Shown: positions 14,773-34,347, numbered from the stretch's first letter. The stretch: 64,000 nucleotides of DNA from an uncultured bacterium (GCA_963768625.1 CAVYIK010000003.1:390715-454714), one strand, 5' to 3'. Numbers and translations are program-made. Notes: generated by a model not told the origin, from the sequence alone.

Positions 14773-14873
14773 GTGGCCGTCAAAAATCTTTCGAAGGTTT
14801 CCTCCGCCGAACTTGAAGGGATCAATGCGAAGCTCATAGAGGTTGAGGTCGACATAAACGTCGGCCTTCATGC
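14773..14873 (+). pseudogene. comM: comM 5' fragment (first ~34 codons), separated from the rest of the gene by the inserted element
   Basis: From GTG 14773 the frame translates to VAVKNLSKVSSAELEGINAKLIEVEVDINVGLHA, the conserved ComM/YifB N-terminus. The frame then runs into element DNA and stops at 14890. Confidence 0.8.
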
Positions 14874-14900
14874 GTTCAAGACAGCGTGGCCGTAGGTACT
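14855..14900. other. attL (comM 5' side / element left end)
   Basis: GTCGGCCTTCATGC|GTTCAAGACAGCGTGGCCGTAGGTAC. The recombinase stop codon (14878-14876) is 2 nt from the CATGC core. Confidence 0.65.
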
Positions 14901-16450
14901 ACAAGCAACTCCTTAGGCAGGACGGCATTCACTACGGCAGTGTCTCCATCCAACTGGATTTGGCTTATAAAGTACTGCAAAACTTTTTGCTTCCTCAGGA
15001 CGTCTATCTTAGCTAGGGCAATCTTAATCCTTTGGGAGAAACCCTTAAGGTCCATCTTCTGGGGCGGCTCCTCGAATGAAATGCTTAGCTTTTTAGCGAG
15101 CGATTCCTTTTCCTCCAGCTGGCTATGGATCTGCTTCTCAATATCGTCCTTCTGGTGCTTAAGCTCCTCAAGCGTCATCACACCCTCGGAATAGGCGAGC
15201 AGGAGTCGATTCTTTTTCTCCTCGTCCCGGAGAATGGCTTTGTTTATCTCCAGAATACGGGACTCGATCTTTTCTTTCGCTGTGTCCCGGTTATTCACCT
15301 TTTGACTAATTCTCCTGAGCAACACAGCAGGGGACTGAACGATTTCCGAAAACTCATTCCAGACGAGACCCTCCAATTCCTCACCGTTATAATGCCTCGA
15401 GCTGTCGCACGTTCCTTCCTCTGGAAAAGCATTGCGCTTATTGGAGCAGATATAGTATTTCGTCCCGTGACAGAATTTCGAGTACATCCTCGCTCCGCAG
15501 GAGTGGATCATCAAACCCCTTAAAAGATAAGGATTTAGGGCCTTGTTAGGGGATAGGGATTTATTCGTTGTTCTCTTGATCTCAACTTGGGCAAAGGTGG
15601 CCCGATCGATAATTGGCGGCACTTCGATAGCTAGCCAGTCTTCCCTAGCCCTTTTTACGCGCTTTGTATTCTTCAATCTGCGATAGCCGTTCTTGGAATC
15701 TCCTTCAACCGACCTGAACTTGCCCCAGTGCGTAGTGCCTATATAGGTTTCGTTCGCAATGACCCTCGACACCATGCTTTGGGACCAATTGTTTGATCCG
15801 CTCCGATTTTTGATATTACGCTCATAGAGCTCCTGCCTGAGCGCTCCCAATCCCGAACAATTCTCGCTCAAATAGATAGAGAATATAAGCCTAACGGTCT
15901 CCGCTTCCTTTTCATCCACCTCATACCATCCTTGCCGAGATTTCTCATCCTTAACGTACCGGTAACCGTAGGGCGGGGTATTGCCTAGGATACTCCCGCG
16001 CCCAATCTTAAACAACTTGCCCCTCCGCAGCCGATCGAGTATCTTTGCTTTCTCGTATTCCGAGATTACGCTCTGTACATTGAATAGGAGCTTGTCTTCT
16101 ATGGTCTCTCCAATGGGCCTGTTCACGAAGACTATTTCCACCCCATAGCGGCCGAGGTCCTCCATGATAATCGCCGCATAGTGGTGCTTCCTAGCCAACC
16201 TGTCTGGGCTTAGAATGTAGACCTTACTGAACAACCTCTTACTAGCATCTGTTCTCAATTGATCCAAATCTGGTCGTTCCAATAGTTCCCCGGAATAGCC
16301 ATCGTCAATATATTTCTTTACCAAAATGTCCCCATTCGCCGCGATCGCCTTTTCAATCTCCGCAATCTGGCTCTCTACGGTGCCTTCCTTCTCTTGACGC
16401 TCCGAGCTCACCCGGGCGTACATTGCTACTAATTGATTTTTATCGCTCAT
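14876..16450 (-). CDS. large serine recombinase (integrase), 524 aa
   Basis: Resolvase-type catalytic N-terminus (VAMYARVSSERQEKEGTVESQ...SPDRLARK), recombinase domain, zinc-ribbon region (CGARMYSKFCHGTKYYICSNKRNAFPEEGTCDS) and a C-terminal coiled coil. It abuts attL. Confidence 0.9.
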   Translation of the reverse strand: MSDKNQLVAMYARVSSERQEKEGTVESQIAEIEKAIAANGDILVKKYIDDGYSGELLERPDLDQLRTDASKRLFSKVYILSPDRLARKHHYAAIIMEDLGRYGVEIVFVNRPIGETIEDKLLFNVQSVISEYEKAKILDRLRRGKLFKIGRGSILGNTPPYGYRYVKDEKSRQGWYEVDEKEAETVRLIFSIYLSENCSGLGALRQELYERNIKNRSGSNNWSQSMVSRVIANETYIGTTHWGKFRSVEGDSKNGYRRLKNTKRVKRAREDWLAIEVPPIIDRATFAQVEIKRTTNKSLSPNKALNPYLLRGLMIHSCGARMYSKFCHGTKYYICSNKRNAFPEEGTCDSSRHYNGEELEGLVWNEFSEIVQSPAVLLRRISQKVNNRDTAKEKIESRILEINKAILRDEEKKNRLLLAYSEGVMTLEELKHQKDDIEKQIHSQLEEKESLAKKLSISFEEPPQKMDLKGFSQRIKIALAKIDVLRKQKVLQYFISQIQLDGDTAVVNAVLPKELLVVPTATLS

Positions 16451-16623
16451 TTTGAATATTTTTGGATAAATTTATCGACCTCTTCCTTTGGGATCCGGAT
16501 AAGGGATGTCCTTCCGGTGCCAAGTTTGAAATATTTCATCTCCCCCTGCTTAAGCCAACGTTCTACTGTTTTTGGATGGACCTTTAGCATTTCCGCGACG
16601 TCTTTCTTGGTCAAGAACTCCAT
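16447..16623 (-). CDS. excisionase-family/MerR-like helix-turn-helix DNA-binding protein (58 aa), candidate Xis/RDF or regulator
   Basis: MEFLTKKDVAEMLKVHPKTVERWLKQGEMKYFKLGTGRTSLIRIPKEEVDKFI. The ATGA overlap with the recombinase start (16450-16447) implies translational coupling. Confidence 0.65.
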   Translation of the reverse strand: MEFLTKKDVAEMLKVHPKTVERWLKQGEMKYFKLGTGRTSLIRIPKEEVDKFIQKYSK

Positions 16624-16645
16624 TACTCCATTATATACCAAATCG

Positions 16646-18259
16646 CTACAAGCTGTCCAGAGGGGGTAAATCCACCCCACCATCCATTCCACTACTGTTT
16701 TGCAATGCCGATATAGTGGCTGCCGCGGTGGGGTAAACTAACATCTTCCTTCTATCCCCAGCTGGATCGGGCTCCTGAACGATAAGGCCAGCATTCTCTA
16801 GCAGGGGGAGTATCTGGGTCCGCGAAAACCAATCCGCCAATACCCGCCCTTTTACTTGCAGATGTTTCTGGGCTATCTCCCTTCGTGTAAGTCCTAAACC
16901 GCCACCCTCGCCAAAGAAAACATCGCTTCCTTGATTCTTTTCAATCCACGCGGGCACAATGACATCCTTGTAAATCTCGTGGACATACGGCGGTATGTTA
17001 AGCTCTTGGCTTTCCGAAATGGCATCCCATACTTTGAACGCTGCAGCGATATCTTCGTCATTCGCTACGATACTTGATCCGTTCCTCTCCCGAAACCAGA
17101 CATTGAGGAGTGCAAAACCCTTAGTAAGCGATATAATGCGCCCGATATCCCGTTGATGACGGGGCTTAAGGGTTCTGTTTTTCCCAAAGAAAGCATCTTC
17201 AAGTTTTTTAGGCGCGCCAATTTTTATGTCCATGATATGCTCCTGCCTAATCGCTCGGATTCGCTCCTTCAATAACTTACGCTTCGGGTCGTTATCTAAT
17301 GCACTAGCATAAGATTCTCGATTTGTTTCCTTGAGTATTTTTTCGTAAATGGCTGCGCGTATTTTTTCCCGGTCGGTCTGGGGACTGAGGAGAATAAACC
17401 GCGTCGTTTCCTGTTCGTCCGCCCTAAGGCCTGCTGTGCAGAAAATCACCGCTGGAAAACCTCTCAGAAATACGTTTTTGGTTCTTAGCCCTCCTTTCTG
17501 AGATTTATCTGTTATTTTAAGTTTGATTTCTTTCTTATCGTGCGAGAGAAGCGGTCGCAGATGTTGGAGTAGGAGTGTATGAGGCTGATCTAGGAAAATA
17601 AGAATCTTGCGAGAGAGATCAACAACCAACTCATTGGTTTCCTTTTTATATTCTTTGGAACGGTCGTGAAAGAATGCGGTAGGGGAGCAATAGCCCAGTT
17701 CGATTACGTCGTCGGCGGGAAAGAGCTGGGCAATCTCGGTGGGGATGTATGATTTGCCGGTAGACGACGGCGCATTGAAGCTGATGTTGAGCTGGTCGTT
17801 TTCGGTATAAGCGGAAAGTTCGCAGAGGAAGGCAATGAGCTTATTTTCCTCATCTTTCTTGATCGTAATACCAAGAATTTCCAAGATTTCGGCCGAGGAT
17901 AGCGGTTTAAACTGGGATAGATCTATCGGAACATCCGCCACCGATTCCAGCTCCATGATGGGTATTTCAACGACCTCATCGCGTTGCTTTTTCTTTGAGA
18001 CAAAGTGAATGATGCCCTCGGAAACCCTTTCTATGGCATCATCGAGCCCGAATTTCTTTACGACCTCCGCAAAATCACCAGTTTTTTTACATACATAACA
18101 TAGTCCATTGCCAGTGGACTGATTGATATAGAGCGTTGCTAGCGCCTCTCCCGTAGCTATGGCGTTCTCGCAAAAAGGGCAAGGAGTTATCAAATTAGCA
18201 CCGTCCACTCGGAATGCTATTTTGTTCTTGGTTAAGTATTGATTTATGTTCATGTTCAT
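16646..18259 (-). CDS. zinc-finger plus P-loop NTPase protein, putative element replication (primase/helicase-like) protein, 537 aa
   Basis: N-terminal CPFC...CYVC zinc finger, Walker A-like NAPSSTGKS, Walker B-like ILIFLDQP, and a C-terminal winged-helix-like region. The family assignment was not verified. Confidence 0.5.
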   Translation of the reverse strand: MNMNINQYLTKNKIAFRVDGANLITPCPFCENAIATGEALATLYINQSTGNGLCYVCKKTGDFAEVVKKFGLDDAIERVSEGIIHFVSKKKQRDEVVEIPIMELESVADVPIDLSQFKPLSSAEILEILGITIKKDEENKLIAFLCELSAYTENDQLNISFNAPSSTGKSYIPTEIAQLFPADDVIELGYCSPTAFFHDRSKEYKKETNELVVDLSRKILIFLDQPHTLLLQHLRPLLSHDKKEIKLKITDKSQKGGLRTKNVFLRGFPAVIFCTAGLRADEQETTRFILLSPQTDREKIRAAIYEKILKETNRESYASALDNDPKRKLLKERIRAIRQEHIMDIKIGAPKKLEDAFFGKNRTLKPRHQRDIGRIISLTKGFALLNVWFRERNGSSIVANDEDIAAAFKVWDAISESQELNIPPYVHEIYKDVIVPAWIEKNQGSDVFFGEGGGLGLTRREIAQKHLQVKGRVLADWFSRTQILPLLENAGLIVQEPDPAGDRRKMLVYPTAAATISALQNSSGMDGGVDLPPLDSL

Positions 18260-19194: not shown

Positions 19195-21027
19195 TTAAGG
19201 CAACCACCCCCACTCAACAGATTTAACGTTGATTTCCTTACAGTTATTACATAAAGCCTTAATAGTCGCTTTCCCGTATTCCACTTCAACCGTAACTTCG
19301 GACCACCCTTTAGCGGTGAGATGATTCAAGAGGTTGTTGTAGGCAAATTTTGACAACAATTGGCCGCAATAATAACAAGGCCATTCCCCTTGCGATATTT
19401 GATTCAATTTTTTAGTGTTTATGCAATTATCACAAATTACCGATCGAGAAATTTCCATGGCGTTACGACCAGTGTTCTCTATATGTAACTGAACCGGCGT
19501 CTTCCGGCATGCACTGCAAAATACAACGTCTACGTACCAAGAAACTTTTTGACGAAACTCTTCCCCTCTCTTTCCCCAACCCTCAGCATCCCTCCTAACC
19601 TTGTCTTGTTCCGTCCTCAGCAATGCCCTTTGTTGAAGGCTGTCGAGATTATTGAACTTCCCTTCGCGAATCAGTTTCATCCATAAAGTGTTCCCCCCAT
19701 TAATCTCTTGCCAAGCCACATGCTCTCTCTCTCGAAATTGGCTATCAATCTGCGAAAAGGCGATTCGTAGTTCGTGTTGAAAATCGCCCAGCCTACTCAT
19801 TATTGCCCTAACAATCTCCTGCCTGATTTCCGTTTCGGTTGGTTTCTTACCCGATTGAACTTCGCGTTGCTTTAGTATCATGTCAACATAACGCCGAGTG
19901 GCAGGGTCAACTTTTTCTAGCACGATCGCATCTTTCTCGTTTATCCTCCTAAGATTTCCAGCGTAACTTCGGTTCCCATACAAACCTTCAAATTCTTTCA
20001 GCGCTGCTCCGACGGAATTGATCGTCTTTAAAACTTCGTCAGTGACGAATGTTTTATTATCGCCTTCCTTTTGCCATTGATTAAACTGTTCAATCGAATA
20101 TTTGAGCGCATTCAAATCCTCTCCCTGTTGATAGCTAGTTTTTGACATCAGATATGGTAAATGTTCGGGATGAAGAAACTCAAAAAACGGTCGAGTTTGC
20201 TGTCCACCCACCATTTCATGGATTTTCGTAAGAAAACCGTAAATTACATAAAGCTCTTGAGCGATTGCCGCGTCCCCTTTGAGTAGATCTTTTCTGTGTT
20301 GCGGGTGACGAGCGATATAGTAATACCAGCGCTCAAGGGGGTCGATTGCGGTAGCTGCATTGCCCACGTGCCATCTAAGTGTATTTATTTTATCGACGCT
20401 CAGGCCATATTGTTCCAAAAGATTTTTCCCATCCGTCCTGATCGGATCGAAATTGTAAGCGTAGGATGGTGCTCCTGCAAACATTCTTCCTTCACCATAC
20501 TCAATTTCATGCTGAGGATAGAGGTCAAAACTATGCAGGAGTTCCAAAAACTGATGATAATGTTCGCAAACCAGAAATGGGTCAAGCATCGGCGGCTCAA
20601 TCTTGCCCCTCTTTCCCCTTGCCGCCTCCACGCTGAATCTCATCCCCGACCCCCAGTTCATCATCCTGGAACCTTGGCTACGGTAGAAATCTAATTCTCC
20701 TCGGACAATGCGTCCCCATAAAAGGCTATCATCTAACACCGAGTTTTCTCTGAGTTCGGCAATGATGTAAATCTGGAATGGACTATAATAACTGACCAGC
20801 TCGGATTTTTCAGTGCCGTCTTGCTGTTTAATGTTCTCTTCTACTTTCAAGACGGGTTTGATAAAACCATCTTTCTCTGCTGCTGCAAGAAAAATTTCAT
20901 CAATATCGAGCTTACGAGCGGTGTGTACGCTTGCATCATCATAGGTACAGTGACTGATAAACCCTTGTCGACTGAGCAATTGATCCTTTTTAATCGCGGC
21001 TTTCTTCTCCTCGTTATTCATACTCAT
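19195..21027 (-). CDS. hypothetical protein, 610 aa, with a C-terminal multi-cysteine (zinc-ribbon-like) region
   Basis: Long intact ORF in about 40% GC DNA. The C-terminus reads CSACRKTPV...CDNCINTKK...CYYCGQLL...CNNCKEI. No family recognised. Confidence 0.6.
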   Translation of the reverse strand: MSMNNEEKKAAIKKDQLLSRQGFISHCTYDDASVHTARKLDIDEIFLAAAEKDGFIKPVLKVEENIKQQDGTEKSELVSYYSPFQIYIIAELRENSVLDDSLLWGRIVRGELDFYRSQGSRMMNWGSGMRFSVEAARGKRGKIEPPMLDPFLVCEHYHQFLELLHSFDLYPQHEIEYGEGRMFAGAPSYAYNFDPIRTDGKNLLEQYGLSVDKINTLRWHVGNAATAIDPLERWYYYIARHPQHRKDLLKGDAAIAQELYVIYGFLTKIHEMVGGQQTRPFFEFLHPEHLPYLMSKTSYQQGEDLNALKYSIEQFNQWQKEGDNKTFVTDEVLKTINSVGAALKEFEGLYGNRSYAGNLRRINEKDAIVLEKVDPATRRYVDMILKQREVQSGKKPTETEIRQEIVRAIMSRLGDFQHELRIAFSQIDSQFREREHVAWQEINGGNTLWMKLIREGKFNNLDSLQQRALLRTEQDKVRRDAEGWGKRGEEFRQKVSWYVDVVFCSACRKTPVQLHIENTGRNAMEISRSVICDNCINTKKLNQISQGEWPCYYCGQLLSKFAYNNLLNHLTAKGWSEVTVEVEYGKATIKALCNNCKEINVKSVEWGWLP

Positions 21028-21082
21028 TTTGCCCTTAATCTACCGCCTTTTGGCGATTTTCTCAAGCGAGTATAATAAAAAT

Positions 21083-21562
21083 ATGCTCTGGTTGATTGGG
21101 ATAGCGTTGTTTCTTCTCTTTTGGTTTATATTCCCGCCATTCCGGAAATTCGCCGTTATCGCTGGCATTTTAATTGTCGCGGGTATAGGCATCATCCTGT
21201 TGTGGTCTAGCCAACAAGAGCAAGCATCTATGTCTCTTATCAAACCTTATCAGATAGAAATAGACAATTTGCGCCTCGGCCAACAATATAGTAGTTACAG
21301 TCTTTCCGGCCAGATAAAAAATAATTCAGATCATGAATTGACCGACATTGTTTTGGACGTGAAAGCCTTCGACTGTCCAACTAGTTCTATAACGTCGGCA
21401 TGCAACACAATCGGAGAGGATAAGAACGCATATTTCTTTGTCGACGTACCGGCCGGGCAGGTGCGCTCGATGAGCGACTCATTTGTGTCATTTGGCGATA
21501 TGCCGCCTGTTCAAGGTCAATTCCTATGGTCATATTCAATCGTCGAGATCAAGGGAGGCTAG
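21083..21562 (+). CDS. hypothetical two-TM membrane protein with an extracytoplasmic domain
   Basis: MLWLIGIALFLLFWFIFPPFRKFAVIAGILIVAGIGIILLW, then a soluble domain. A TATAAT at 21071-21076 lies only 6 nt before this ATG (possible leaderless start). The tracked start is 21029. Confidence 0.5.
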   Translation: MLWLIGIALFLLFWFIFPPFRKFAVIAGILIVAGIGIILLWSSQQEQASMSLIKPYQIEIDNLRLGQQYSSYSLSGQIKNNSDHELTDIVLDVKAFDCPTSSITSACNTIGEDKNAYFFVDVPAGQVRSMSDSFVSFGDMPPVQGQFLWSYSIVEIKGG

Positions 21563-21601
21563 AAATTGACAGGGTCTCAGTAAGAGTTAGAGTGAATACA
21601 A

Positions 21602-22696
21602 ATGCAGCCGATTGCCCTGCGGGTCAGCATCGGTTGCCTACTTCTTGGAGCAGGGATGCTTTTGGCAGCCCCGTTGATGGCTTTTGCTACTTCAGGGGCA
21701 TGCTCCTATCACGGCGGCGTAGATTGCGCGGCGGGTCCGGGTATTTATGGGCAGGTCATCTGCAACGATGGATGGACGGATAGTAGTGTCAGTTATGATT
21801 CGATGGTCGAATGCGGTGGCGGTTACTATTCTCCACCGTCATGTCCGATATTCTCTAGTTACGATTCTTTATCCGGTTCCTGTAAGTGTAACTATGGCTA
21901 TGTAGCGAGTGGCGACCAATGCATCTCGCAAGATGAAGCTTGCCAAAATCAGTTAGGCTACGAATCTCAGTACAACATTTTAAACAATACGTGCGAGTGC
22001 AACTCCGGATATATTATCCAGGGAGGAACGTGCGTCAACGCCAATAATTACTGCTGGAATAATTTTGGTTACGGATCTGAGTTTAACAGCCTCAGCAAAC
22101 AATGCGAATGCAGCTCGGGATATCAGTTCGATTCCAGTTCCGAGCAATGCGTCAGTGCAGCAACCTATTGTGAAAATACCTACGGCAGCCATGCAGAATC
22201 TGATTATGCTGGTGTCTGTAAATGCCAATATGGATATGTACTTAACTCTACTAAGGACACGTGTATTAGCGGTGACGATTACTGCCAAGCCGCTTTTGGA
22301 AATTATGCGACATATGATTCCTTATCTAACACCTGTGGCTGCCAAGACGGCTATGAAATGACGAATGGTCAATGCCAAGAAGTTCCTGTCGTTTCAGACC
22401 AACCCGTGCCCATCATTGAAAACAATTACCCAACCACTTACAGTCCGACTCCAACGCCCACTCCAGCACCCGCTCCCAAGCCAAAACCGATTATTAAAAA
22501 AGCTCCCGTTGTTACTCCACTGCCCCCTGTTCAAATTGAAGCAACCACCTCCGCTTCGTCTAGCGTTACTACTGCGACATCTTCTGCGACAACGTCTACG
22601 GCCACAACAACGAACACTCAGACGGCATCTCAAGTTTCAAACGATGGATTTCTCGCTCGATTCTGGAAATTCTTAACAGGACTATTTAGCAATTGA
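21602..22696 (+). CDS. secreted cysteine-rich protein with five EGF-pattern repeats and a Pro/Thr-rich tail, 364 aa
   Basis: Signal peptide, then the ATSGACSYHGGVDC module, then five matches to C-x-C-x2-G-Y-x(6,8)-C (aa 94-258), then a PTPTPAPAPKPKP linker and S/T-rich region. Confidence 0.7.
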   Translation: MQPIALRVSIGCLLLGAGMLLAAPLMAFATSGACSYHGGVDCAAGPGIYGQVICNDGWTDSSVSYDSMVECGGGYYSPPSCPIFSSYDSLSGSCKCNYGYVASGDQCISQDEACQNQLGYESQYNILNNTCECNSGYIIQGGTCVNANNYCWNNFGYGSEFNSLSKQCECSSGYQFDSSSEQCVSAATYCENTYGSHAESDYAGVCKCQYGYVLNSTKDTCISGDDYCQAAFGNYATYDSLSNTCGCQDGYEMTNGQCQEVPVVSDQPVPIIENNYPTTYSPTPTPTPAPAPKPKPIIKKAPVVTPLPPVQIEATTSASSSVTTATSSATTSTATTTNTQTASQVSNDGFLARFWKFLTGLFSN

Positions 22697-22697
22697 G

Positions 22698-23006
22698 ATG
22701 GGCTTCTTATCAAAAATTAAACAGCGAAAGAGCGAGATTATAACGTGGGGTGTTATTGCGCTTGTTATTTTAGGAATTTATGGCTACTACCATTGGTATG
22801 TTCCCTATTGGGATCTAAAGCACGGGTTTGTGGTTGTTAGCGGCTTTGATTGCCCGAGCGATCATCCCATTAAAGCCCATCTAGGGAGCATGATTTATCA
22901 CTTGCCCGGCGATCCTTATTACGCCAGAACCAGTGCTTCAAATGGAGAATGTTTTGACACGTCTCAACACGCAGAACAGCAGAATTTCCGAGCAATAATC
23001 AGATAA
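22698..23006 (+). CDS. membrane-anchored small protein with a sunset-like domain (102 aa)
   Basis: N-terminal TM helix, then CPSDHPIKAHLGSMIYHLPGDPYYARTSASNGECFDTSQHAEQQNFRA, resembling the IKGN..YH.PG..Y....CF....A...G.R pattern. Confidence 0.45.
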   Translation: MGFLSKIKQRKSEIITWGVIALVILGIYGYYHWYVPYWDLKHGFVVVSGFDCPSDHPIKAHLGSMIYHLPGDPYYARTSASNGECFDTSQHAEQQNFRAIIR

Positions 23007-23008
23007 GA

Positions 23009-23782
23009 ATGAAAAAATATTTATCGTTCTGTTTGTTTATCGTGAGTATCGCACTACCGTTATCGGTTCTTGCAACATCGGGAGCGTGTTCTTATCACGG
23101 CGGCGTAAATTGTAAGGTGGTTTCGGAGGCGGGCGGTAATGCTATTTGTAATGACGGCTGGGTTAGTTCAGTTCAGTATTCGGATGTCGATGAATGTAAG
23201 CAAGCAGGTTCATGCTTGTATGGCATGGTCGACCAGGCAACTCACGATAAGGCCGTAAGTGATTTTAATACACTTACAACTAATTTTATGAACGATGCAA
23301 GTCAAACTTTTAACAATGCTTTGAAGAATTTAGGTTCTTATTCATATGCAGACCAAGTGATCGCCCAAGCAAAACTAGATGCGTATAATGCTCAAGTGAA
23401 ACTTTTGGAAGGGACGATTAGTTGCCCAATAAAACCGTCGGTAACAACTACTACCCCAACCTCATCGACTTTCGCGCCCTCACTAACCCCTCTCACTATC
23501 AATTCAACCTCAGCGGTGAGTCCTTTGGCCGTAATGAGTTCGTCGTCTTATGCCTCAGTAACTCAAAATCTCCAAGTCGGAGCTTTGGGCCAAAGCGTCA
23601 TAAACCTTCAACGCTTTCTTGAGGACAAAAGGTTTCTTACGCTTCCGTCAGGAACCAGCGAGGGGTACTTCGGGAATCTAACGAAGCAAGCGCTCGTCGC
23701 TTTTCAGAAATCAGCAGGGCTACCCGCGACGGGGTATTGCGGGCCAATGACCAGAGCGGCAATTACTGACTCGTCTAAATAG
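23009..23782 (+). CDS. secreted protein with an N-terminal SGACSYHGGV module and a C-terminal peptidoglycan-binding domain, 257 aa
   Basis: Signal peptide. ATSGACSYHGGVNC...ICNDGW...DEC is paralogous to the 21602 protein. The C-terminal LGQSVINLQRFLEDKRFL...GYFGNLTKQALVAFQKSAGLPATGYCGPMT is PG_binding_1-like. Confidence 0.65.
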   Translation: MKKYLSFCLFIVSIALPLSVLATSGACSYHGGVNCKVVSEAGGNAICNDGWVSSVQYSDVDECKQAGSCLYGMVDQATHDKAVSDFNTLTTNFMNDASQTFNNALKNLGSYSYADQVIAQAKLDAYNAQVKLLEGTISCPIKPSVTTTTPTSSTFAPSLTPLTINSTSAVSPLAVMSSSSYASVTQNLQVGALGQSVINLQRFLEDKRFLTLPSGTSEGYFGNLTKQALVAFQKSAGLPATGYCGPMTRAAITDSSK

Positions 23783-23834
23783 ATGACGTTCGCATTAGGT
23801 TCCTATTCAAGTCCGTGGCCGCAGTATAAAAGAA

Positions 23835-25310
23835 GTGGGAAATAAAAATATGTTTTGTAAAAACTGCGGGGCAAAAATAGAAGAAGGTGGTAAGTTTTGC
23901 AAACATTGCGGGCATCCTTTGGACATTCCCGCCGAGCCCAAGCCTTTGATACAACCCAATCCCGCCCCAGACGATAATGGCTCGGGACGAAACGCTTTGA
24001 GCGAAAAGGTGTCCAAGCCGAGTAGACAGGGAAGGGATATAGCCATACTTATCCTCGTCCTCGGCGGTGCCGCATTTTTGTTCTACTTTATGATCGAAGC
24101 AATACTGACAAGTAGTCTTCAGCCCCTGGCGACCCCCTTCGTTGCTGCAAATAGCAACAATATCGGGGCTACCGAGTCCAACACGCAGATATCATCGCCT
24201 ATTCAAACTGCACCGCAACAGCCAACTCAAGCTCCCCCCGTTGCGAGCGGCCAAACCAATCAGAGTACTAACAACCAACAACCCCAAGAGATCCCCTCAG
24301 ATTCATCCGGCAATTTATCACCTTCCTTAATCAATCAAATAGAACCCGCTATCGTTGAAATTAATTGCTACCCTGCGGGTAGCAACAGTGTCCGGATACA
24401 AGGTTCCGGCACTTCAGTGAATGTCAAAGGAACGATCGAAATTACAAGCAATTTTCACGTCTACGGCATGGCAGTTGAGGGAAGTGCCTTACCTACCTGC
24501 TATGCCGTTTATCCCCAACCGCCGGATTATTCATATAACTATGCATATGGGGACTACCAATTAACCCTAATTGGTGAACATTATGATGCTACCACGTACC
24601 AAGATTCGGCTATTTTCGAACTTGGGCAACTTTATCCTTCTGCCACTGCATTAAGTCATGTACCAGTGATAAATGACGCACCTGTTTCTGGTCTCAATTC
24701 CAACTGTGGTGGCGTTGAAGTCGGCGACACCGTGACAATTTTCGGATATCCGAGCTCAGGTAATTTGCTCGGCATTTCAGAAACGGTCACGCATGGAATA
24801 ATAAGCGGATTGGTGACGGGGCCGATTTATAAGACCGATGCGCCAATCGATCACGGCAATTCAGGAGGGCTCGCCATTTTGAACAAGAACCAGTGTGCGC
24901 TTGGTATCCCGACGCTAGGGGAGTCCGGCCTCACGGCAGGAATTGGTTATATCCAATCTTTTGCTCTCGCCTTATCTACTTCCAACAATAGCACCCAGCC
25001 CCAGAATGTTACTCCGGCACCAAGTGCGCCCTCTTATTCAGCGCCAACAAATCCAAGATATTTTCAACTCAACGTAACGGGCGTCTGTAGCGATTATGGT
25101 CAAAACGGTACCGTTATTCTCTCGGGTTATCCCATGACAAGCGATTATAGTATCCCCAGTGACGATATAACGAACTGGACCGATGGCGATGTGGCTTTCA
25201 CGGTGCCTACGGTTGTCCCTGCGGGCACCTATCAGGTGACTGTTCGGGGATATGAACCTGGAACGGGTTTTTGTGCGGACGTTCATGGCGGAAGTATCAC
25301 TATTCACTAA
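23835..25310 (+). CDS. zinc-ribbon / TM / trypsin-like (S1) serine protease with a C-terminal Ig-like domain, 491 aa
   Basis: MFCKNCGAKIEEGGKFCKHCGHP zinc ribbon, one TM helix and a Q/P-rich linker. Candidate catalytic triad contexts are TSNFHVYG, YQDSAIFEL and DHGNSGGLAI. Confidence 0.65.
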   Translation: MGNKNMFCKNCGAKIEEGGKFCKHCGHPLDIPAEPKPLIQPNPAPDDNGSGRNALSEKVSKPSRQGRDIAILILVLGGAAFLFYFMIEAILTSSLQPLATPFVAANSNNIGATESNTQISSPIQTAPQQPTQAPPVASGQTNQSTNNQQPQEIPSDSSGNLSPSLINQIEPAIVEINCYPAGSNSVRIQGSGTSVNVKGTIEITSNFHVYGMAVEGSALPTCYAVYPQPPDYSYNYAYGDYQLTLIGEHYDATTYQDSAIFELGQLYPSATALSHVPVINDAPVSGLNSNCGGVEVGDTVTIFGYPSSGNLLGISETVTHGIISGLVTGPIYKTDAPIDHGNSGGLAILNKNQCALGIPTLGESGLTAGIGYIQSFALALSTSNNSTQPQNVTPAPSAPSYSAPTNPRYFQLNVTGVCSDYGQNGTVILSGYPMTSDYSIPSDDITNWTDGDVAFTVPTVVPAGTYQVTVRGYEPGTGFCADVHGGSITIH

Positions 25311-25379
25311 AATCCGATTTATTGGCTAGATGTGAAGCAGTTTAGAATTTTTTAATCTCCTTTTTGGTAGCCTTCTCGT

Positions 25380-25520
25380 ATGAACGAGGATTTAACCGAC
25401 GAGGAGTTTAAGGAATTGTGCCGGAATTGGAATGAAGAAATGCGACTTAAAAGAGAGGAGATTGTGGGCCAGATCCACGAACTGACCAGGCTGTTATTAG
25501 AATTGCAAAAGCTTCTGTAG
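25380..25520 (+). CDS. possible small coiled-coil ORF (46 aa)
   Basis: MNEDLTDEEFKELCRNWNEEMRLKREEIVGQIHELTRLLLELQKLL. It is below the ORF-track cutoff and was found by manual translation. Confidence 0.25.
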   Translation: MNEDLTDEEFKELCRNWNEEMRLKREEIVGQIHELTRLLLELQKLL

Positions 25521-25563
25521 ATTGATTCCTGATATAATCTATTCGTGGTTCGCCCACAGCTGA

Positions 25564-26358
25564 ATGACCAAATTATCGTTTTCCAAAAAGCAGGTACTTA
25601 TCAACGTTCTTAAGCTTGTCATCGTCCTCGGCATATTATTGCTTGCGGTATATCTTTGGTTTATCTGGAGCCTCAGAACGGTCGTTGCTCAAAAGAGTTG
25701 GCTTGATCCGAGTTTTTGGGTGGGGGGCATCTTACTTATCGTCGGCTTTGTACTAGGAATCACTGAGGTTTGGCTATTGAAAAAACTTGATGCTTGGTTG
25801 GATAGAAAAATCTTCGAAATCAAAAATGCGCTCAAGGGAAATCGGGGCGAAAAGAAAACGTTTGAGCGGCTGAATGAGATGCTGGGTGATCGTTACAAGA
25901 TTTACAGAAACTTCCAGATTCCTAGCAGGAAATTCGATATCGACGCTATGGTGGTAGGGCCGAAGGGCATTATCACGTTCGAAATAAAGAATATCGGCAC
26001 AGAGAAGGACACGTATCGCTTTGAAGGAACCGACATATACAAAATCACGACATATAGCAATGGGAATGTGTGCTCCTGCAAATTGGGCGGATATAAAAGC
26101 GGCAATCCAGTCGAAGAAGCTATGCGACATAATCAAGTACTGGAAGAATGGCTCATGAAAAATGGCTACGAAGGCATAAAAATAAAAGGGGCCATCTTAA
26201 TGACGAGCGATGCAAAGATTGAGGATCTGAAAAACCCCGCCGTCTATGTCATCAAGGGATTCGACGGGATAAAGCGATATATGGACGGGGCATTTGAGGA
26301 CCAGAGATTCACGGATGACTTTTGCGCAAAACTGAATCGGCTATTTGCTGACCAATAG
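25564..26358 (+). CDS. membrane-anchored NERD (nuclease-related) domain protein, 264 aa
   Basis: Two N-terminal TM helices, then GNRGEKKTFERLNEMLGDRYKIYRNFQIPSRKFDIDAMVVGPKGIITFEIKNIG, the NERD pattern. An extended -10 (TGATATAAT) lies about 30 nt upstream. Confidence 0.65.
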   Translation: MTKLSFSKKQVLINVLKLVIVLGILLLAVYLWFIWSLRTVVAQKSWLDPSFWVGGILLIVGFVLGITEVWLLKKLDAWLDRKIFEIKNALKGNRGEKKTFERLNEMLGDRYKIYRNFQIPSRKFDIDAMVVGPKGIITFEIKNIGTEKDTYRFEGTDIYKITTYSNGNVCSCKLGGYKSGNPVEEAMRHNQVLEEWLMKNGYEGIKIKGAILMTSDAKIEDLKNPAVYVIKGFDGIKRYMDGAFEDQRFTDDFCAKLNRLFADQ

Positions 26359-26415
26359 TAAGCTTGAATGGAGGTCTTATTTGACTTTTTAATATCAATT
26401 CAGTAAATTGACAAT

Positions 26416-27015
26416 ATGGTCAAACTAGTGAATCAGACCAAGTTTGCCGCGAAGATAAAGGGGAAAAGGATACCCATATTCACCGTTCGTGAGGTACAGC
26501 AACTCTTTGGATTATCAAAGGGAACGGCGGTCAAGCTATTGCACCGTTACACTAAAAATGGTTTCACTGTACGCCTAAAGAGAGGATTGTATGCTTTCCC
26601 CGACGCTTTGCCGCCCGATTTGTTTATCGCAAATAAACTATATGAACCTTCGTATATTTCCTTACAATTCGCGCTTTCTTATCACGGAGTGATCCCAGAA
26701 ACAGTGTATGAAATAACATCGGTTACCACCAAGGCAACGCGCCGCTTTGAAGTGGGAGGAAAGATCTATACCTACCGCCGCATTAAGCGTCAATCGTTTA
26801 CGGGATACCAGACCGAGCGACAGGCGGGAATAAGCTTTCTTATTGCCGAGCCAGAAAAAGCATTTGTTGACCTTCTGTATTTCCGCTTATACTCAGGGAG
26901 GAAGCCACTCTCACGTTTTAATAAGGGGAAAATAGATGCAGCGAAAGCATTACGATATGCAGAATTATTTGGAAATTCAAAATTGACGGGCATTATAAAA
27001 ACCACATTACGATGA
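26416..27015 (+). CDS. AbiEi-family antitoxin (type IV TA / abortive infection)
   Basis: N-terminal wHTH (FTVREVQQLFGLSKGTAVKLLHRYTKNGFTVRLKRGLY), then SYISLQFALSYHGVIPE. An ATGA overlap links it to the downstream AbiEii gene. Confidence 0.7.
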   Translation: MVKLVNQTKFAAKIKGKRIPIFTVREVQQLFGLSKGTAVKLLHRYTKNGFTVRLKRGLYAFPDALPPDLFIANKLYEPSYISLQFALSYHGVIPETVYEITSVTTKATRRFEVGGKIYTYRRIKRQSFTGYQTERQAGISFLIAEPEKAFVDLLYFRLYSGRKPLSRFNKGKIDAAKALRYAELFGNSKLTGIIKTTLR

Positions 27016-27779
27016 TTGCAAAAGAATCACTACAGACATTAGCGCGAAATTATCAGACGAGCGAATTCCCCAATATTGTGCGGGAGTATTATCAGCATCT
27101 TTTTCTTTCGCAAATGTATAGGTTGAATGGGGCGGAAAAACTTCTTTTCAAGGGAGGGACTGCTCTGCGGATTGTTTACGGAAGCCCCCGTTTTTCAGAA
27201 GACCTTGATTTTTCTCTTTTTGGCGTCCCCGTGCATGAAACGAAAAAATATGTCGAAGATATATTCGTGAAGATTCTCGCAGAGATTGAGAGTCAGGGTA
27301 TAAAGGTGGATATCGGTGAAAAATCAGGCTCGACCAGCGGGGGATACTTCGGCATCGCTTCCTTCAAGACCGTTGATTATCAGCCGGTTAATGTGGAAAT
27401 AAATATATCTTCAAGAAACGGGAGAAATATTCAGGGCGAAGTAGACAGCGTAGCTAATAGTTTTGTGCCAAATTACACCCTCGTTCATTTGCCCCAAGGT
27501 GAACTAGTTGAGGAAAAGGTTTTTGGTGCGCTCCGTGAGCGGAAGAAGCCGCGAGATTATTATGATCTCTATTTCATTATGCGGCGAGGAATGCTTTCGC
27601 CAGATCAAAAAAAGCGGCTTGGAGAGATTAGTGCAACCATTATTTCAGAAGCAAACGCTATAGATTTCAAAGGGGAGCTTGGAGCGTTCCTACCGGCTGA
27701 TCAACAAGCAATTATACGTGACTTTCCACGCGCACTTGGTCAAGAAATGGACCGTCAACTTTCTTCGTTATCACATTAA
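27012..27779 (+). CDS. AbiEii/AbiGii-family nucleotidyltransferase toxin
   Basis: LLFKGGTALRIVYGSPRFSEDLDFSL is the family NTase motif. A C-terminal KPRDYYDLYF motif is also present. Confidence 0.75.
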   Translation: MIAKESLQTLARNYQTSEFPNIVREYYQHLFLSQMYRLNGAEKLLFKGGTALRIVYGSPRFSEDLDFSLFGVPVHETKKYVEDIFVKILAEIESQGIKVDIGEKSGSTSGGYFGIASFKTVDYQPVNVEINISSRNGRNIQGEVDSVANSFVPNYTLVHLPQGELVEEKVFGALRERKKPRDYYDLYFIMRRGMLSPDQKKRLGEISATIISEANAIDFKGELGAFLPADQQAIIRDFPRALGQEMDRQLSSLSH

Positions 27780-27833
27780 ACAGGTCCGAACGTCGTGCGC
27801 GCGAAGGGGGAATGTATTTAAAAATACTTTGCC

Positions 27834-28001
27834 ATGAAATACTCCGAAAAGCTCGTACAAGACTGCCGGGAGTACTATATGAAACGCGGCGTCGCCATCT
27901 CCGGGGAAACGGCGGAGCAATTTCTTGATACCCTTGCAGATCTTTGGGATTGCCTGGCTAAATCGCTAAAACGGAAGTCCAGCTCTCAGTCTAAGTCCTA
28001 A
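27834..28001 (+). CDS. possible small ORF (55 aa)
   Basis: MKYSEKLVQDCREYYMKRGVAISGETAEQFLDTLADLWDCLAKSLKRKSSSQSKS, found by manual translation. No motif recognised. Confidence 0.25.
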   Translation: MKYSEKLVQDCREYYMKRGVAISGETAEQFLDTLADLWDCLAKSLKRKSSSQSKS

Positions 28002-28148
28002 AATCGCATTTGTTCGAATCCTGGCCTGTGCACAGACTTGAGCATCCGTTCGAGGGAGCGGGATGCCTCAAAATATAAATGAGTTTTTGAACGTCGTATT
28101 AGGACAATCCGACTTCACAAAACTCTGAAGATGGCATAGGATAAAGCC

Positions 28149-29531
28149 ATGGAAAAATTCCCGACGCAACCGGGTAACGAAAGGGAGAAATCCGAGGGAT
28201 CGGTTGAGCACCCTGCGCTCCGTGAAAAATCTAACACTGAGCTTTTTGCGATCCGACTCATGGAAGATGAATTAAGGTCGTATGAAAAGAATTGGGAAGT
28301 CGGTGGGACGCTTGGAGCTGGAGAGAAAAGAAACATAGGCACAATGAGACAAACCCTCCAAGAGGGCGACTACACCCTTGTCTTGGGCCAACTTTTCTCT
28401 GAAAAGGGAGCACTCTTGGAGAATAAAGAAAATCCTGATTCCAAGTTTAATGCCGACGCCAGAGTTAGAGACATTGATCGGATCATCAAGACTTTGGGAT
28501 ACCAAGAATTTCCCGAAGCCAAAAAAGTTACAGAGCAGGACGTTGCGATATATCTCGATTCAATGGCGAGGGAGTTGGCCGACTTTGGGCGAAATCATGG
28601 CGGAGATATAAAATATATGAAAAAGATGATGCAGGAATCGGATTCATATCTGCAGTTATCGAACGAGATACTGAACCCATCCGGAGAAAATGGAGAAATG
28701 AGCGAAGAAGCTCGGAAGAAAGTTTATGAGGTGCTTCAGCAAAAGGAAATAGGATTCCGTTCGCGCAGAGCCGGAAGCGAGTATGCCACAATGGCCAATG
28801 GCGAGGGTAATTTGGAAGCATATCGAAATCCGTCTCCGCAAACTGAAATCCAGATTAAAGATCTTAAAAAAGAAATCGAGCAGGCGCTGAGAGTGGGGGC
28901 GATGGCAAATTTATTTGAGAAAAGCCCAGAAGGCGGCGCTGGGAAAGAAGCTAAAGAAGCTGAAGAGCGTGAGCGCAAACTACAGCAACTTCGCTCTGAA
29001 ATGCAGAGAACCGCACAGCCCCTCGATCGTCCTCAATCTGAAGAAGAGAGATTGAGAGAATCTAGGAATAAAATTGATAGTATGACTATCAATGCTGGAG
29101 TAAAAAAACAAGAAAAAAAAGAGGAGCTGCCAGGAAATCTCGGTAAGATAAAGCATGTTTTAAATAATTACGTTGAACAGTCGACGGGCCGTCCATCAAA
29201 CCAAGTGGACAGTATGACCCCCGCTGTTGAGGGTTTTAAAATGGCCTACCCGGAAGAAAATGATTGCTTATCCAGAATAAATGAGGTCGCCAAAATCTAT
29301 GGAACCAGAGTGCAGGAAGAATTAAAAACAGACGCAAGAAACGAAGGAGGGTATGCGAAGAACAGGGCGCTTGAATATATTGTGAGTTCCGTTCTGACCC
29401 AACAGGAAAGAGCAGCTTTTGATAGGGTTGCGAAGCAAGAAGAACAAAGACAATACACTCCGGGTATGCGTATGGTTGGGATCGTTCCTTTAAAAACATC
29501 CTTGCGAGATCTTTTTGAGGCCATAGCTTAA
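28149..29531 (+). CDS. hypothetical highly charged protein, 460 aa
   Basis: Intact ORF, rich in E/K/R coiled-coil-like segments. No recognisable domain. It is convergent with the second recombinase, with a 4-nt gap. Confidence 0.55.
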   Translation: MEKFPTQPGNEREKSEGSVEHPALREKSNTELFAIRLMEDELRSYEKNWEVGGTLGAGEKRNIGTMRQTLQEGDYTLVLGQLFSEKGALLENKENPDSKFNADARVRDIDRIIKTLGYQEFPEAKKVTEQDVAIYLDSMARELADFGRNHGGDIKYMKKMMQESDSYLQLSNEILNPSGENGEMSEEARKKVYEVLQQKEIGFRSRRAGSEYATMANGEGNLEAYRNPSPQTEIQIKDLKKEIEQALRVGAMANLFEKSPEGGAGKEAKEAEERERKLQQLRSEMQRTAQPLDRPQSEEERLRESRNKIDSMTINAGVKKQEKKEELPGNLGKIKHVLNNYVEQSTGRPSNQVDSMTPAVEGFKMAYPEENDCLSRINEVAKIYGTRVQEELKTDARNEGGYAKNRALEYIVSSVLTQQERAAFDRVAKQEEQRQYTPGMRMVGIVPLKTSLRDLFEAIA

Positions 29532-30876: not shown

Positions 30877-30948
30877 ACCTCAATGGATGACGCACTGGCC
30901 GGGGAAGTCCAGGCCCTCATTACAAGGTCACAAAGAGGCCGAAGAGGC

Positions 30949-31206: not shown

Positions 31207-31363
31207 CAGACCCGCCCGAGACACCTCGATTGTCGGATCGCTCCGGCCCCTCAAAAGACCCCATGAAACCTATCGTCGAAATTTGCGAGACCGGGTAAGG
31301 GCCCTGTTTCGTTGACTTAGTTTTTGGGCTGCATTAGGGTGGGAAGGTAGTTTGGAGGGTCAA

Positions 31364-31594
31364 ATGGGCTCTAGCTCCTTGGATGTTCAATGCTTGAGCT
31401 GCGAACGAGCTCGCTCTAGTTACAGTGGAAAACCGTTCGTACCTCCGGGTGGATCGTGTAACGATCTGTTCTGGACTTGTCATTGCGGCCAGATGTGGTT
31501 TCAGGGAAACAACTATTATCACCTTTGGCAGCCAGTGACTCCCGAGCAAGCCGATGCATTTCGAAGGGATTTGAACTCCCCTTCGGATTATTAA
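31364..31594 (+). CDS. small cysteine-rich (zinc-ribbon-like) protein, 76 aa
   Basis: GGAGG lies 5 nt upstream of the ATG at 31364. The protein has CLSC...C...CHC cysteines and is followed by a terminator. Confidence 0.5.
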   Translation: MGSSSLDVQCLSCERARSSYSGKPFVPPGGSCNDLFWTCHCGQMWFQGNNYYHLWQPVTPEQADAFRRDLNSPSDY

Positions 31595-31617
31595 TCCATA
31601 TCCATCACGGGGAGACC

Positions 31618-31645
31618 GGCCGCTTAGCGATAGGCGGCCTTTTTA
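31618..31645 (+). terminator. rho-independent terminator
   Basis: Stem GGCCGC/GCGGCC with a 10-nt loop, followed by TTTTTATT. Confidence 0.6.
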
Positions 31646-31683
31646 TTCAAAATCGTTCGAACATCGTCCAGGCCTGTGCACCA

Positions 31684-32376: not shown

Positions 32377-32378
32377 AG

Positions 32379-32759
32379 TTACTTCTTTATCCTCACTTTT
32401 CGCTCCAGGATGATGCTGTTCACGAGATCCATCTTCTCGTCCAATTCCCCAACCTCAAGGGCCTTGAGGGCTATATTCGCCAAATAACCGATACAATTGG
32501 CCTTCTGGTGGGTCATGGGTTCGGTCCGGATACGGTTAATGGTGTCTTCAATCAGGGCAAGTACTCCCTCAATGTTCCTCACCGGAATGACCGTCAGAGC
32601 TCCCGCCTCCTTCCTGGGCTTCGGGGATAGGGCGCCCTTCCTGATAGCCGCCTCCCGCTGCTCCTTGGCGTCGGGATTGTGGATGAAGCAGTAATCCGCC
32701 CCGGTCATGGGGTTTGCTTTGCAGGGACTGCCGTCTGGCTTTATATATTGGCAATTCAT
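32379..32759 (-). CDS. hypothetical protein with an N-terminal Cys/His knuckle, 126 aa
   Basis: MNCQYIKPDGSPCKANPMTGADYCFIHNP (C-x10-C-x10-C-x2-H). It is the first gene inside the right end of the element. Confidence 0.5.
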   Translation of the reverse strand: MNCQYIKPDGSPCKANPMTGADYCFIHNPDAKEQREAAIRKGALSPKPRKEAGALTVIPVRNIEGVLALIEDTINRIRTEPMTHQKANCIGYLANIALKALEVGELDEKMDLVNSIILERKVRIKK

Positions 32760-32871
32760 TGGATTTGGCTAGGAGGGGTGGGGATGGATATATCGTGAGA
32801 GGGGGTGTGGGGTAAACTCGCGGTTCGTGCCTTTCTTCTAGGAATGGTGAGGGTAAATTGGAAGGGATACC

Positions 32872-32912
32872 CTATGTCGTACCTGTGTCCATGCAATAAA
32901 TATTGTCGGCCT
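32872..32912. other. attR (element right end / comM 3' side)
   Basis: CTATGTCGTACCTGTGTCCATGC|AATAAATATTGTCGGCC. The CATGC core is at 32890-32894. Confidence 0.65.
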
Positions 32913-34347
32913 CGCCGATAAAGCACTGAACGAAGCGAAAGAGCGGGTGAACTCGGCCTTAAAAAATTCCGGCGCGAAACCGCCGAATCGGGAGAATAGG
33001 AAGATCACCGTAAATCTCGCGCCGGCCGACGTCAAAAAGGCGGGGTCGCATTATGATCTCGCCATCGCACTCGGCTACCTCTCGGCGACAAAGCAGATCA
33101 GGCCGTTCAACGCGGCGAGAAAGATCTTCGTCGGAGAGCTCGCGCTTGATGGGCGACTGCGCCCCGTGAATGGGGCACTGAACATTGCCCAGATGGCGCG
33201 CGACCTTGGCTTTGAATATTTTTTCCTGCCGAGATGGAACGCGGATGAAGCCGCGGTCATACGGGGGATAAAAATAATCCCGCTCGAACATTTGTGCGAC
33301 GCCATTGATTTTCTTGAGGGAAGGGGACCAGCCCCGGCCCCGTCCACGTCGTCCGTTTCACCCGGGGCGCAAGCGGCATCTGCGCCACCCGAAGAGGCGT
33401 GCCCCGACCTTTCAGAGATAATCGCTCAAGAAAACGCCAAGCGGGCGCTCACGATCGCTGCCGCGGGCGGTCACAACATCCTCATGATCGGGCCTCCTGG
33501 CGTAGGGAAGAGTATGCTCGCACGCGCGCTCGCTGGCATCCTTCCCGATCTCGCGTCGGCCGAAGCCATAGAGATCACGAAGGTTTGGAGTGCGGCGGGG
33601 CTTTCGCCGGGGCATCTCATGCGCGAACGCCCATTCCGCGCGCCGCACCAAACGGCGTCCGTGACGGCAATGGTGGGTGGCGGGCAGGATCCGCGGCCAG
33701 GCGAGATAAGTCTTGCGCACCGAGGCATCCTTTTCCTTGATGAGCTGCCCGAGTTCCCGAAGAACGTGCTTGAAGCCCTGCGCGAGCCCATGGAATCAGG
33801 CATTGTGCGCATCGCAAGGGCGAAGCAGATCCTCACCCTGCCGGCAAAATTCGCGCTCGTTGCCGCGATGAACCCCTGCCCATGCGGTTATTACGGCGAT
33901 GCCGAGCGAACCTGCACGTGCACCGCTTACGAGGTCATACGTTATCAAAAGAAAATATCAGGGCCGCTGCTTGACCGTATTGATCTCCAGATAAAAGTAG
34001 GGCGTGTGAAGGTGAGCGAGCTGCGGAGAGGGAAGTGGCGCGCGCCCGCAAGTCCGGGCGTCAAAAAACAGATCGAGGCCGCGCGGAAGGTGCAGGAAAA
34101 ACGATTCGCATCCTTGAGTATAATCGTGAATGCAGAAATGAGTTCGCGGGAGGCACAGGCGATGGCTCAACTCGCGCCGCGCGCGGAAAAGTTTCTGGAA
34201 ACGCTTGACCGGAGCCGCATTTCCCCGCGCGCATATTATCGGATCATCAAAGTCGCCCGGACCATCGCCGACATTGAGGGGAGTGAATGCACTTCCGCGG
34301 AACACCTCGCCGAAGCATTCAGTTACCGCCTAAAGGAAGATTATTAA
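32895..34347 (+). pseudogene. comM: comM 3' fragment (Mg-chelatase-like AAA+ competence helicase, about 483 codons)
   Basis: INIVGLADKALNEAKERVNSALKNSGAKPPNRENRKITVNLAPADVKKAGSHYDLAIALGYL, Walker A GPPGVGKSML, Walker B GILFLDELPEF and the C-terminal ComM region. It is in the same frame as the 5' fragment. An internal ATG at 32947 gives the tracked 466-aa ORF. Confidence 0.9.

Follow-up and report, generated by a model that had tools for sequence, protein, structure and literature searches.

What divides the comM gene of an uncultured bacterium into two pieces, and could the division be undone? The question is raised by a stretch of 64,000 nucleotides (GCA_963768625.1, CAVYIK010000003.1:390715-454714; hereafter the window), in which comM (yifB) of a small-genome Patescibacteria host is cut in two by an 18,021-bp insert. 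An earlier interpretation made without database searches, here called the sequence-only reading, held that a serine-recombinase element splits comM and that precise excision would rebuild the gene. Our analysis supports this proposal, and we consider it likely that the insert is a member of an element family found in several Patescibacteria and was placed in comM by its own large serine recombinase (LSR), designated LSR1. A serine-recombinase element that splits comM is by now a textbook-level pattern and adds little beyond a new host group. What is new is the Patescibacteria host combined with a recombinase gene that is split by its own attachment site (attP) and ended by a stop codon supplied by the host. 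Coordinates are collected in Table 1, and related loci and proteins are referred to by their numbers in our comparison (L and P, respectively).

The two comM pieces described in the sequence-only reading, one from GTG 14773 onward and one from 32895 to the stop at 34347, were confirmed at these positions. The same is true of the 1554-nt, 517-aa open reading frame (ORF) obtained when 18,021 bp are taken out and 14773-14873 is joined to 32895-34347. The joined ORF is colinear with ComM, matching the Pfam domains ChlI, Mg_chelatase and Mg_chelatase_C, and it aligns end to end with the YifB model TIGR00368 at 546.9 bits (cutoff 362.4). Over the joint it aligns without a gap to 119 of 119 intact homologs. 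The ChlI match covers the complete 121-position profile (residues 24-149) and runs across the joint; in the integrated state this domain is interrupted at residues 35/36, and the element sequence supplies no replacement. The closest intact comM relatives are 75% identical, and those with source names are labelled Liptonbacteria, Paceibacterota or Patescibacteria. The sole 100% match, P0001, is the truncated 466-aa gene call of the source genome, located on a 588-kb contig. On the 5' side, integration has separated the body of comM from codons 1-35, the start codon included, and from the promoter side, and the earliest in-frame start in the 3' part is GTG 32947, at codon 52.

The exact point of exchange was placed differently in the sequence-only reading, which took CATGC as the core. 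This motif is present at both junctions (14869-14873 and 32890-32894), but it is not the crossover, because a joint at CATGC produces Ile at residue 35, where Phe is found in 119 of 119 homologs. A joint at the dinucleotide AA, 9 nt rightward, yields ...VGLHAFNIVGL... and restores the invariant Phe35 at a length of 517 aa, and the element length is still 18,021 bp (for example, 14880-32900). Of 167 columns with high conservation, comM joined at AA deviates at 1, which is also the median for the intact homologs and indicates that the two halves are without decay.

Junctions of related elements bracket the same dinucleotide. At the left junction (attL) of the window, the bases after CATGC are GCG TTC AA, encoding Ala-Phe-As(n) as in the host consensus. 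Sister attL sequences read GCT TTT AA (L002, L087) and TGC TTT AA (L004), and thus change only at host codon positions. At the right junction (attR), the element side is invariant (…GTGTCCATGCAATA), and the base after AA is T or C, as in the Asn codons AAT or AAC of the respective hosts. The differences beside AA in this comparison set (L154, L165 and L161-163) fall only at synonymous or codon positions of the host. Because host-side variation occurs on both flanks and Phe35 is restored, the exchange is confined to the AA dinucleotide. Judged from these junctions, recombination is shown to have occurred at the AA that spans comM codons Phe35 and Asn36, in agreement with the 2-bp staggered cut predicted for a serine recombinase. 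Natural variation alone maps a serine-integrase crossover to one dinucleotide. CATGC is a motif common to the left half-sites of attP and of the host site, attB, and is not the core; the joint, attP and empty-site sequences proposed previously fall with the misplaced core.

The attP rebuilt from the two element ends is ACCCTATGTCGTACCTGTGTCCATGCAATA-AA-GACAGCGTGGCCGTAGGTACTACAAGCAAC (as a 40-mer, GTACCTGTGTCCATGCAATAAAGACAGCGTGGCCGTAGGTAC), and the corresponding attB 40-mer is CGTCGGCCTTCATGCGTTCAATATTGTCGGCCTCGCCGAT. A dyad centred on AA has 16 of 24 matches and is the top centre of the 400-nt junction; this score is attained by only 6 of the ~64,000 centres in the window. The dyad of the second element scores 18/30. 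The outer arms (GTACCT...AGGTAC) of the palindrome noticed in the sequence-only reading are real, but their centre is AA and not CATGC. An inner palindrome (TGTC/GACA) has another centre, which is neither the core nor a dinucleotide, and was given no weight. With short att sites, a 2-bp core, an imperfect attP dyad and host variation from five junction sets, the locus has the features of serine-integrase recombination. It thereby offers a clean attP and attB for a recombinase family of Patescibacteria, organisms with almost no genetic tools.

As had been stated, LSR1 is a 524-aa large serine recombinase. It has the three-domain composition of this class (Resolvase, Recombinase and zinc ribbon, ~450-700 aa). 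The crossover at AA places attP inside the LSR1 reading frame. The LSR1 stop was thought to lie 2 nt from the core, but it straddles the junction, such that TGA (14878-14876) is made of one core base and two bases of host comM DNA. The reverse complement of comM TTY-AA is always TRA, and therefore the Phe-Asn codons supply a stop for LSR1. Integration strips 47 C-terminal codons from the gene. These codons (LLHGHRYDIGYPFQFTLTIPRRK... followed by TGA) form the right arm of attP at the far end of the element, and their TGA overlaps the ATG of the conserved gene p126 (CAATGA). Reading through the circular junction gives ...TLS-LLHGHRYDIGYPFQFTLTIPRRK... and a total of 571 aa. The circular form would rejoin the frames of a small helix-turn-helix (HTH) gene, the 571-aa LSR1, p126 and p230, with ATGA overlaps at the first two junctions. 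Integration consequently swaps the LSR1 C-terminus and breaks a coupled operon.

Several observations suggest that the detached tail is a genuine part of the recombinase. The tail (LLHGHRYD.GYP...) is contiguous in homologs P0127-P0131, which are 65-69% identical, 558-587 aa long and not in comM, and which carry a contiguous TLSLLHEHRYDNGYPMEI..IP.RR. The motif Y-[PA]-F-E-F is retained in more distant relatives. Contiguous LSR genes in L005 and L166 retain the dyad at the same dinucleotide, with scores of 15/24 and 16/24. At the right ends of four other elements, 41-47 tail codons remain in frame; of 25 codons compared between the window and L154, 6 carry a synonymous and 3 a non-synonymous change, an excess of synonymous changes. 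In an AlphaFold (AF2) model of P0127 (mean pLDDT 80.8), the C-terminal hairpin is followed by the tail, folded as a short helix together with a beta strand that is paired (residues 537-545, pLDDT ~62-78). In a comparison with the SPbeta integrase SprA (PDB 9dxh), residues 19-531 of P0127 align with chain residues 26-537 of 545. Because this alignment reaches residue 537 of 545, essentially all of the known architecture is retained in the 524-aa LSR1, and the 47-aa piece that becomes detached is an extension and not a core domain.

Intact attP-like dyads within the ORF of full-length LSR1 homologs were noted on contigs that are not from Patescibacteria, at ~11580 in L005, a 72.8-kb contig of an Ignavibacteriaceae metagenome-assembled genome whose LSR is 69% identical, and at ~11665 in L166 (66%). 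The LSR gene of L005 has TraG-like, DUF932 and PycTM genes as neighbours. L005/L006 and L166 were considered as free forms of the element and rejected, as they are without p126 and p230 and their neighbourhoods are unlike that of the window element.

The coupling of the HTH gene to LSR1 was described correctly in the sequence-only reading: the stop of the 58-aa frame overlaps the recombinase start in ATGA, and the start at ATG 16623 was checked, although the ORF can be extended to GTG 16692 (81 aa). The protein matches the excisionase-family model TIGR01764 at 44.6 bits (cutoff 28.8). In L002-L006, L008, L087, L097 and L105, related LSRs likewise have an HTH gene directly upstream, a synteny that extends across clades. 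These features make the HTH protein a candidate directionality factor or regulator. For serine integrases, the recombination directionality factors (RDFs) known to us do not include HTH proteins of the excisionase type, and for this reason the protein may be a regulator instead. PMC12286644 makes no mention of an HTH RDF. In NCBIfam searches, a model of IS607-family transposases matches the HTH ORF at its positions 1-46 and LSR1 residues 4-129 at its positions 52-171, and the overlapping HTH and LSR1 ORFs (16447-16692 and 14876-16450, minus strand) mimic the IS607 order of an HTH followed by a catalytic domain.

Profile searches of genome and metagenome contigs with the LSR1 family profile yielded mostly distant LSRs of Firmicutes and Negativicutes, and the useful matches were L087 and a second comM-targeting clade; the source genome did not appear among the matches. 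In at least four further Patescibacteria contig sets, precisely this comM position is occupied by LSRs that are 61-79% identical to LSR1. Those of 77-79% identity abut a comM 5' stub on Logan contigs from SRR23300980/85 and on a contig from JGI, and the 61% relative does likewise. The SRR23300980 contig carries a complete ~12-kb sister element between both comM parts. It has p126, p230, DUF5659, p537-homolog, HTH and LSR genes in common with the window element, but its cargo is different and it has no second LSR. Additional right junctions were found in JGI contig L165, which shares its sample with the left junction of L004, and in JGI contigs L161-163. The same position is therefore occupied in the window, L002/L154, L004/L165, L087 and L161-163, and 119 homologs elsewhere are intact. 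These junctions also rule out that the 18-kb block resides in relatives without comM halves at its ends.

LSRs of the second clade are 33-38% identical to LSR1 and abut comM next to Walker A (…GGHNILM|IGPPG…, residues ~227-232). In L094, L095 and L097, comM from ~aa 227 is co-directional with the LSR, and in L102 and L106, comM aa 4-232 is antisense to it. The ORFs of this clade likewise run across the junction into host DNA, and L097 also has p126 and HTH genes. A further contig of 17.5 kb with a p126 homolog (L156, ENA ERZ25039480 contig_104319) ends exactly at the crossover and begins TTATTGCATGG…. Coexistence of integrated and free forms, or of several hosts, would make an assembly graph branch at the crossover.

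The sequence-only reading regarded a comM-splitting arrangement as new, but such arrangements are already known from three studies. Durrant et al. 2022 (PMC10083194) reported that homologs of Mg-chelatase/ATP-dependent protease (YifB) are the commonest target of predicted site-specific LSRs (12.4%), and took the enrichment seen for competence genes to be a strategy that the elements have evolved. In Mageeney et al. 2020 (PMC7192596), yifB is included among new cases of regulated gene integrity, and many comM entries appear in the serine-integrase tree and the domain-disruption table of that study. Bordenstein & Bordenstein 2022 (PMC9203015) described sr1WO phages that integrate into the Mg-chelatase gene of Wolbachia. 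The window element resembles the comM/yifB-targeting LSR elements in that the same integrase type acts in coding sequence, a Pfam domain is disrupted and not replaced, and multiple independent insertions at one position are accompanied by many uninterrupted orthologs. However, the surveys covered isolate genomes, whereas the element described here is from an uncultured Patescibacteria lineage, for which we found no relevant report of comM-inserted elements in the open-access literature. Furthermore, a crossover at one AA dinucleotide inside the recombinase's own frame, as found here, was not found described in PMC10083194 or PMC7192596.

Recombinases of phage WO are the best phage-database relatives of LSR1, with 33% identity. 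At the start of the WOVitA2 record (HQ906663.1; L167 4560-4623), the recombinase ORF crosses the Mg-chelatase junction and ends at a TAA in host codons (…CCG GAT AA). The record ends …GTC AA TATTGTTGGCTTGCCGGATAA, which corresponds to ComM …NIVGLPD and is the same ComM position to within one codon. The far end of the WOVitA2 record is without a comM stub, and the WO crossover is thus placed only approximately, from one side. The self-splitting layout seems to be present in phage WO as well, where it has gone unremarked. In contrast to the window element, which is without phage hallmarks, WO is a prophage of the tailed type, 40-66 kb in length, and its recombinase gene is co-directional with comM whereas LSR1 is antisense.

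We propose that LSR1 joined attP to attB at AA. In this event, comM lost its start side and LSR1 its 47 codons simultaneously, and the integrated LSR1 ends at the stop read from the reverse strand of comM TTY-AA. Precise recombination between attL and attR would restore both an undamaged 517-aa comM and the 571-aa LSR1. The truncated 524-aa LSR1 would presumably still perform excision, and the free and integrated enzymes may differ in their properties through the C-terminal tail. ComM, a helicase, acts in the recombination of incoming DNA and is not known to act in its uptake. Insertion should therefore not block nutritional DNA uptake, which weakens the link to a dependence of the lineage on DNA uptake that was drawn in the sequence-only reading. 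In the published view, loss of transformation-driven recombination shields such elements from replacement, and the knock-out of comM would probably benefit the element.

Some points weigh against this interpretation. No intact comM allele of at least 90% identity was present in a 15-billion-protein collection, and the attP junction was found neither in IMG/VR nor among the 166 loci compared. Full-length contiguous homologs of LSR1 occur on chromosomal-looking contigs (L166), so that an intact attP inside the ORF is no proof of an episomal state. A second recombinase encoded by the element, LSR2, may have a role. Lastly, the activity of truncated LSR1 and the roles of the HTH protein and the tail are predictions from sequence.

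The sequence-only reading envisaged a host-regulated excision switch, in which the cell or the element would trigger excision under defined conditions to turn comM on, but we regard this as rather improbable. Such regulated gene integrity is exemplified by skin in sigK (SpoIVCA), SPbeta in spsM (SprA with SprB) and phi10403S in comK, all of which likewise have an LSR element in a coding sequence that is restored by scarless excision. Scarless reconstitution of comM is possible, the LSR is coupled to a gene of the excisionase family, and yifB is a published candidate. In addition, the comM halves are undecayed while the neighbouring UvrD-like gene is full of frame changes, but a recent insertion explains the intact halves equally. 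Neither an empty site nor a circular junction was found in the collections searched, and the element, like an ordinary mobile element, is encountered repeatedly in different hosts with varied cargo of its own. The literature prefers competence knock-out as an element strategy. For skin, SPbeta and phi10403S, excision was experimentally demonstrated and tied to a host programme, whereas for the element described here excision is a prediction.

We find it more doubtful that the element is an immobilised remnant, in which tail-less LSR1 cannot excise and comM is permanently off, as with the 'suicidal' integrases of archaea. The archaeal SSV-type integrases, which behave in this manner (PMC8371274), resemble LSR1 in that attP lies inside the integrase gene and the gene is whole only in the free form. 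In accord with this model, integrated LSR1 is 47 aa shorter and the circular form was not detected in IMG/VR or the compared loci. However, in SSV-type enzymes, which belong to the tyrosine recombinases, the catalytic domain is split off and inactivated, whereas LSR1 is a serine recombinase that loses only a 47-aa C-terminal extension, keeps all of its recognised domains and is left with the whole SprA-like core. Every integration-module ORF is intact, the detached tail is still in frame across elements, and comM is undecayed. The same family also occupies the site in several diverged hosts, which needs repeated mobility.

It is very unlikely that two separate tandem or nested elements are involved, or that the comM junctions were made by LSR2 and not by LSR1. 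This idea derives from the presence of two unrelated LSRs. LSR2 shares 34-40% identity with the LSRs encoded in L159, L160 and L157, where the recombinase belongs to a p126-p230-LSR module of its own, coming after p126-p230 (at contig ends in L159 and L160) and ending against tRNA-like DNA, not comM. In L157, the end of the LSR ORF (11735-13528) overlaps a tRNA-Gln gene (13316-13390); Mageeney et al. 2020 (PMC7192596) described the use of tRNA genes by serine integrases as previously unreported. Two integration modules are thus brought together in the window element. However, comM-inserted elements that lack LSR2, such as that of L154, still have p126 and p230 at their right end. No att-like junction or split gene was found next to LSR2 inside the element, and no tRNA-like sequence was seen at its stop. 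Given the split ORF and attP dyad, both of which are those of LSR1, and a sister element without LSR2, only LSR1 is tied to comM. It is hardly credible that the junctions are binning or assembly artefacts of a metagenome-assembled contig whose GC content shifts at the insert borders, since an independent Logan assembly of ERR11594402 contains the identical recombinase protein and 220 identical bases across the left junction, which argues that the insert is not an assembly chimera, and four other sample sets have the same attL/attR architecture.

With insertion by LSR1 as the preferred explanation, the split recombinase gene can be considered in its own right. Recombinases whose own gene is broken up by their action were held to be exclusive to archaea by Badel et al. 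2021 (PMC8371274). We found no description of an attP inside a serine integrase gene in the open-access literature, which is not proof of novelty. As a tentative possibility, the enzyme may exist in two forms, a free 571-aa form coupled to p126 and p230 and an integrated 524-aa form, with the tail acting as an inbuilt detector of whether the element is integrated or free and biasing directionality, stability or expression. Such an arrangement would parallel, with a serine recombinase in bacteria, the self-splitting integrases of archaea, in a lineage where reversible inactivation of comM could gate the recombination of taken-up DNA. Should directionality depend on the tail, the element would have a simple protein-encoded way to know its integration state.

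Table 1. Positions of the comM pieces, crossover dinucleotides and element genes in the window
Feature	Position	Strand	Remarks
comM 5' part (host DNA)	14773..14879	+	GTG start to crossover AA; codons 1-35 and first two bases of Asn36; aligns to N-termini of 119 homologs
attL crossover dinucleotide AA	14878..14879	.	bracketed by host-variable bases; centre of attP dyad
LSR1, large serine recombinase, 524 aa integrated	14876..16450	-	Pfam Resolvase, Recombinase, Zn_ribbon_recom (PF00239, PF07508, PF13408)
HTH_17/excisionase-family gene, 58 aa	16447..16623	-	ATG 16623; Pfam HTH_17; stop overlaps LSR1 start in ATGA
p537, conserved core gene	16646..18259	-	~51% identical to 412-aa proteins beside HTH-LSR in L002/L154, L004
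DUF5659 gene	18378-18668	-	Pfam; homologs at same position in L002, L004, L157, L159, L160
Short sigma-70 region-2-like gene	18649-18951	-	Pfam
p610	19195-21027	-	no family match
Membrane/secreted protein block	21029-25310	+	includes PG_binding_1 protein and zinc-ribbon/trypsin-like protease
NERD nuclease gene	25564-26358	+	Pfam
AbiEi/AbiEii, complete pair	26416-27779	+	Pfam, PADLOC; abortive-infection or toxin-antitoxin system; beside NERD gene
p460	28149-29531	+	no family match
LSR2, large serine recombinase, 446 aa	29536..30876	-	~20% identical to LSR1; missed by the sequence-only reading
p230	31684-32376	-	right-end gene; p126/p230 homologs in L002/L154, L159, L160, L161-L165, L097
p126	32379-32759	-	conserved right-end gene
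Detached LSR1 3' end	32756..32899	-	47 codons (LLHGHRYDIGYPFQFTLTIPRRK...) and TGA; also attP right arm
attR crossover dinucleotide AA	32899..32900	.	host variation and dyad
comM 3' part (host DNA)	32899..34347	+	Asn36 to stop; Walker A GPPGVGKS, Walker B LFLDELPEF

The remaining gene content is that of an element without recognisable phage or conjugation genes. No capsid, portal, terminase or tail gene was detected among the element ORFs with Pfam and PHROGs, and relatives of LSR1 were absent from the IMG/VR scan. The region 19195..29531 is variable cargo, and the L154 element holds different cargo. The proteins p537, p610, p460, p230 and p126 gave no match in Pfam, PHROGs or NCBIfam, and all of these except p126 gave none in PADLOC. 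The GC fraction of the insert is 0.46, compared with 0.55-0.56 in the flanks, which is a smaller step than the drop from about 60% to about 42% reported in the sequence-only reading.

Three observations concern the host DNA on either side. Directly downstream of comM, a UvrD-like helicase gene (35172-36967, plus strand) exhibits at least five frame changes relative to the intact 647-aa ortholog in L154, and is either a decayed pseudogene or affected by a local assembly error. Unlike this adjoining gene, comM, LSR1 and the other element genes are uninterrupted. To the left of comM, the host stretch 13000-14772 is likewise of low GC content (0.457). A 176-aa ORF in this stretch (14190-14720) has a weak match to the DksA/TraR zinc finger, and a different 108-aa ORF occupies that place in L004, so this stretch may be a small variable islet. 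Further to the left, a 389-aa ORF (11024-12193, minus strand) is matched to the H+-pyrophosphatase profile (645 positions) over positions 13-232 only, and this gene may be truncated or fragmented.

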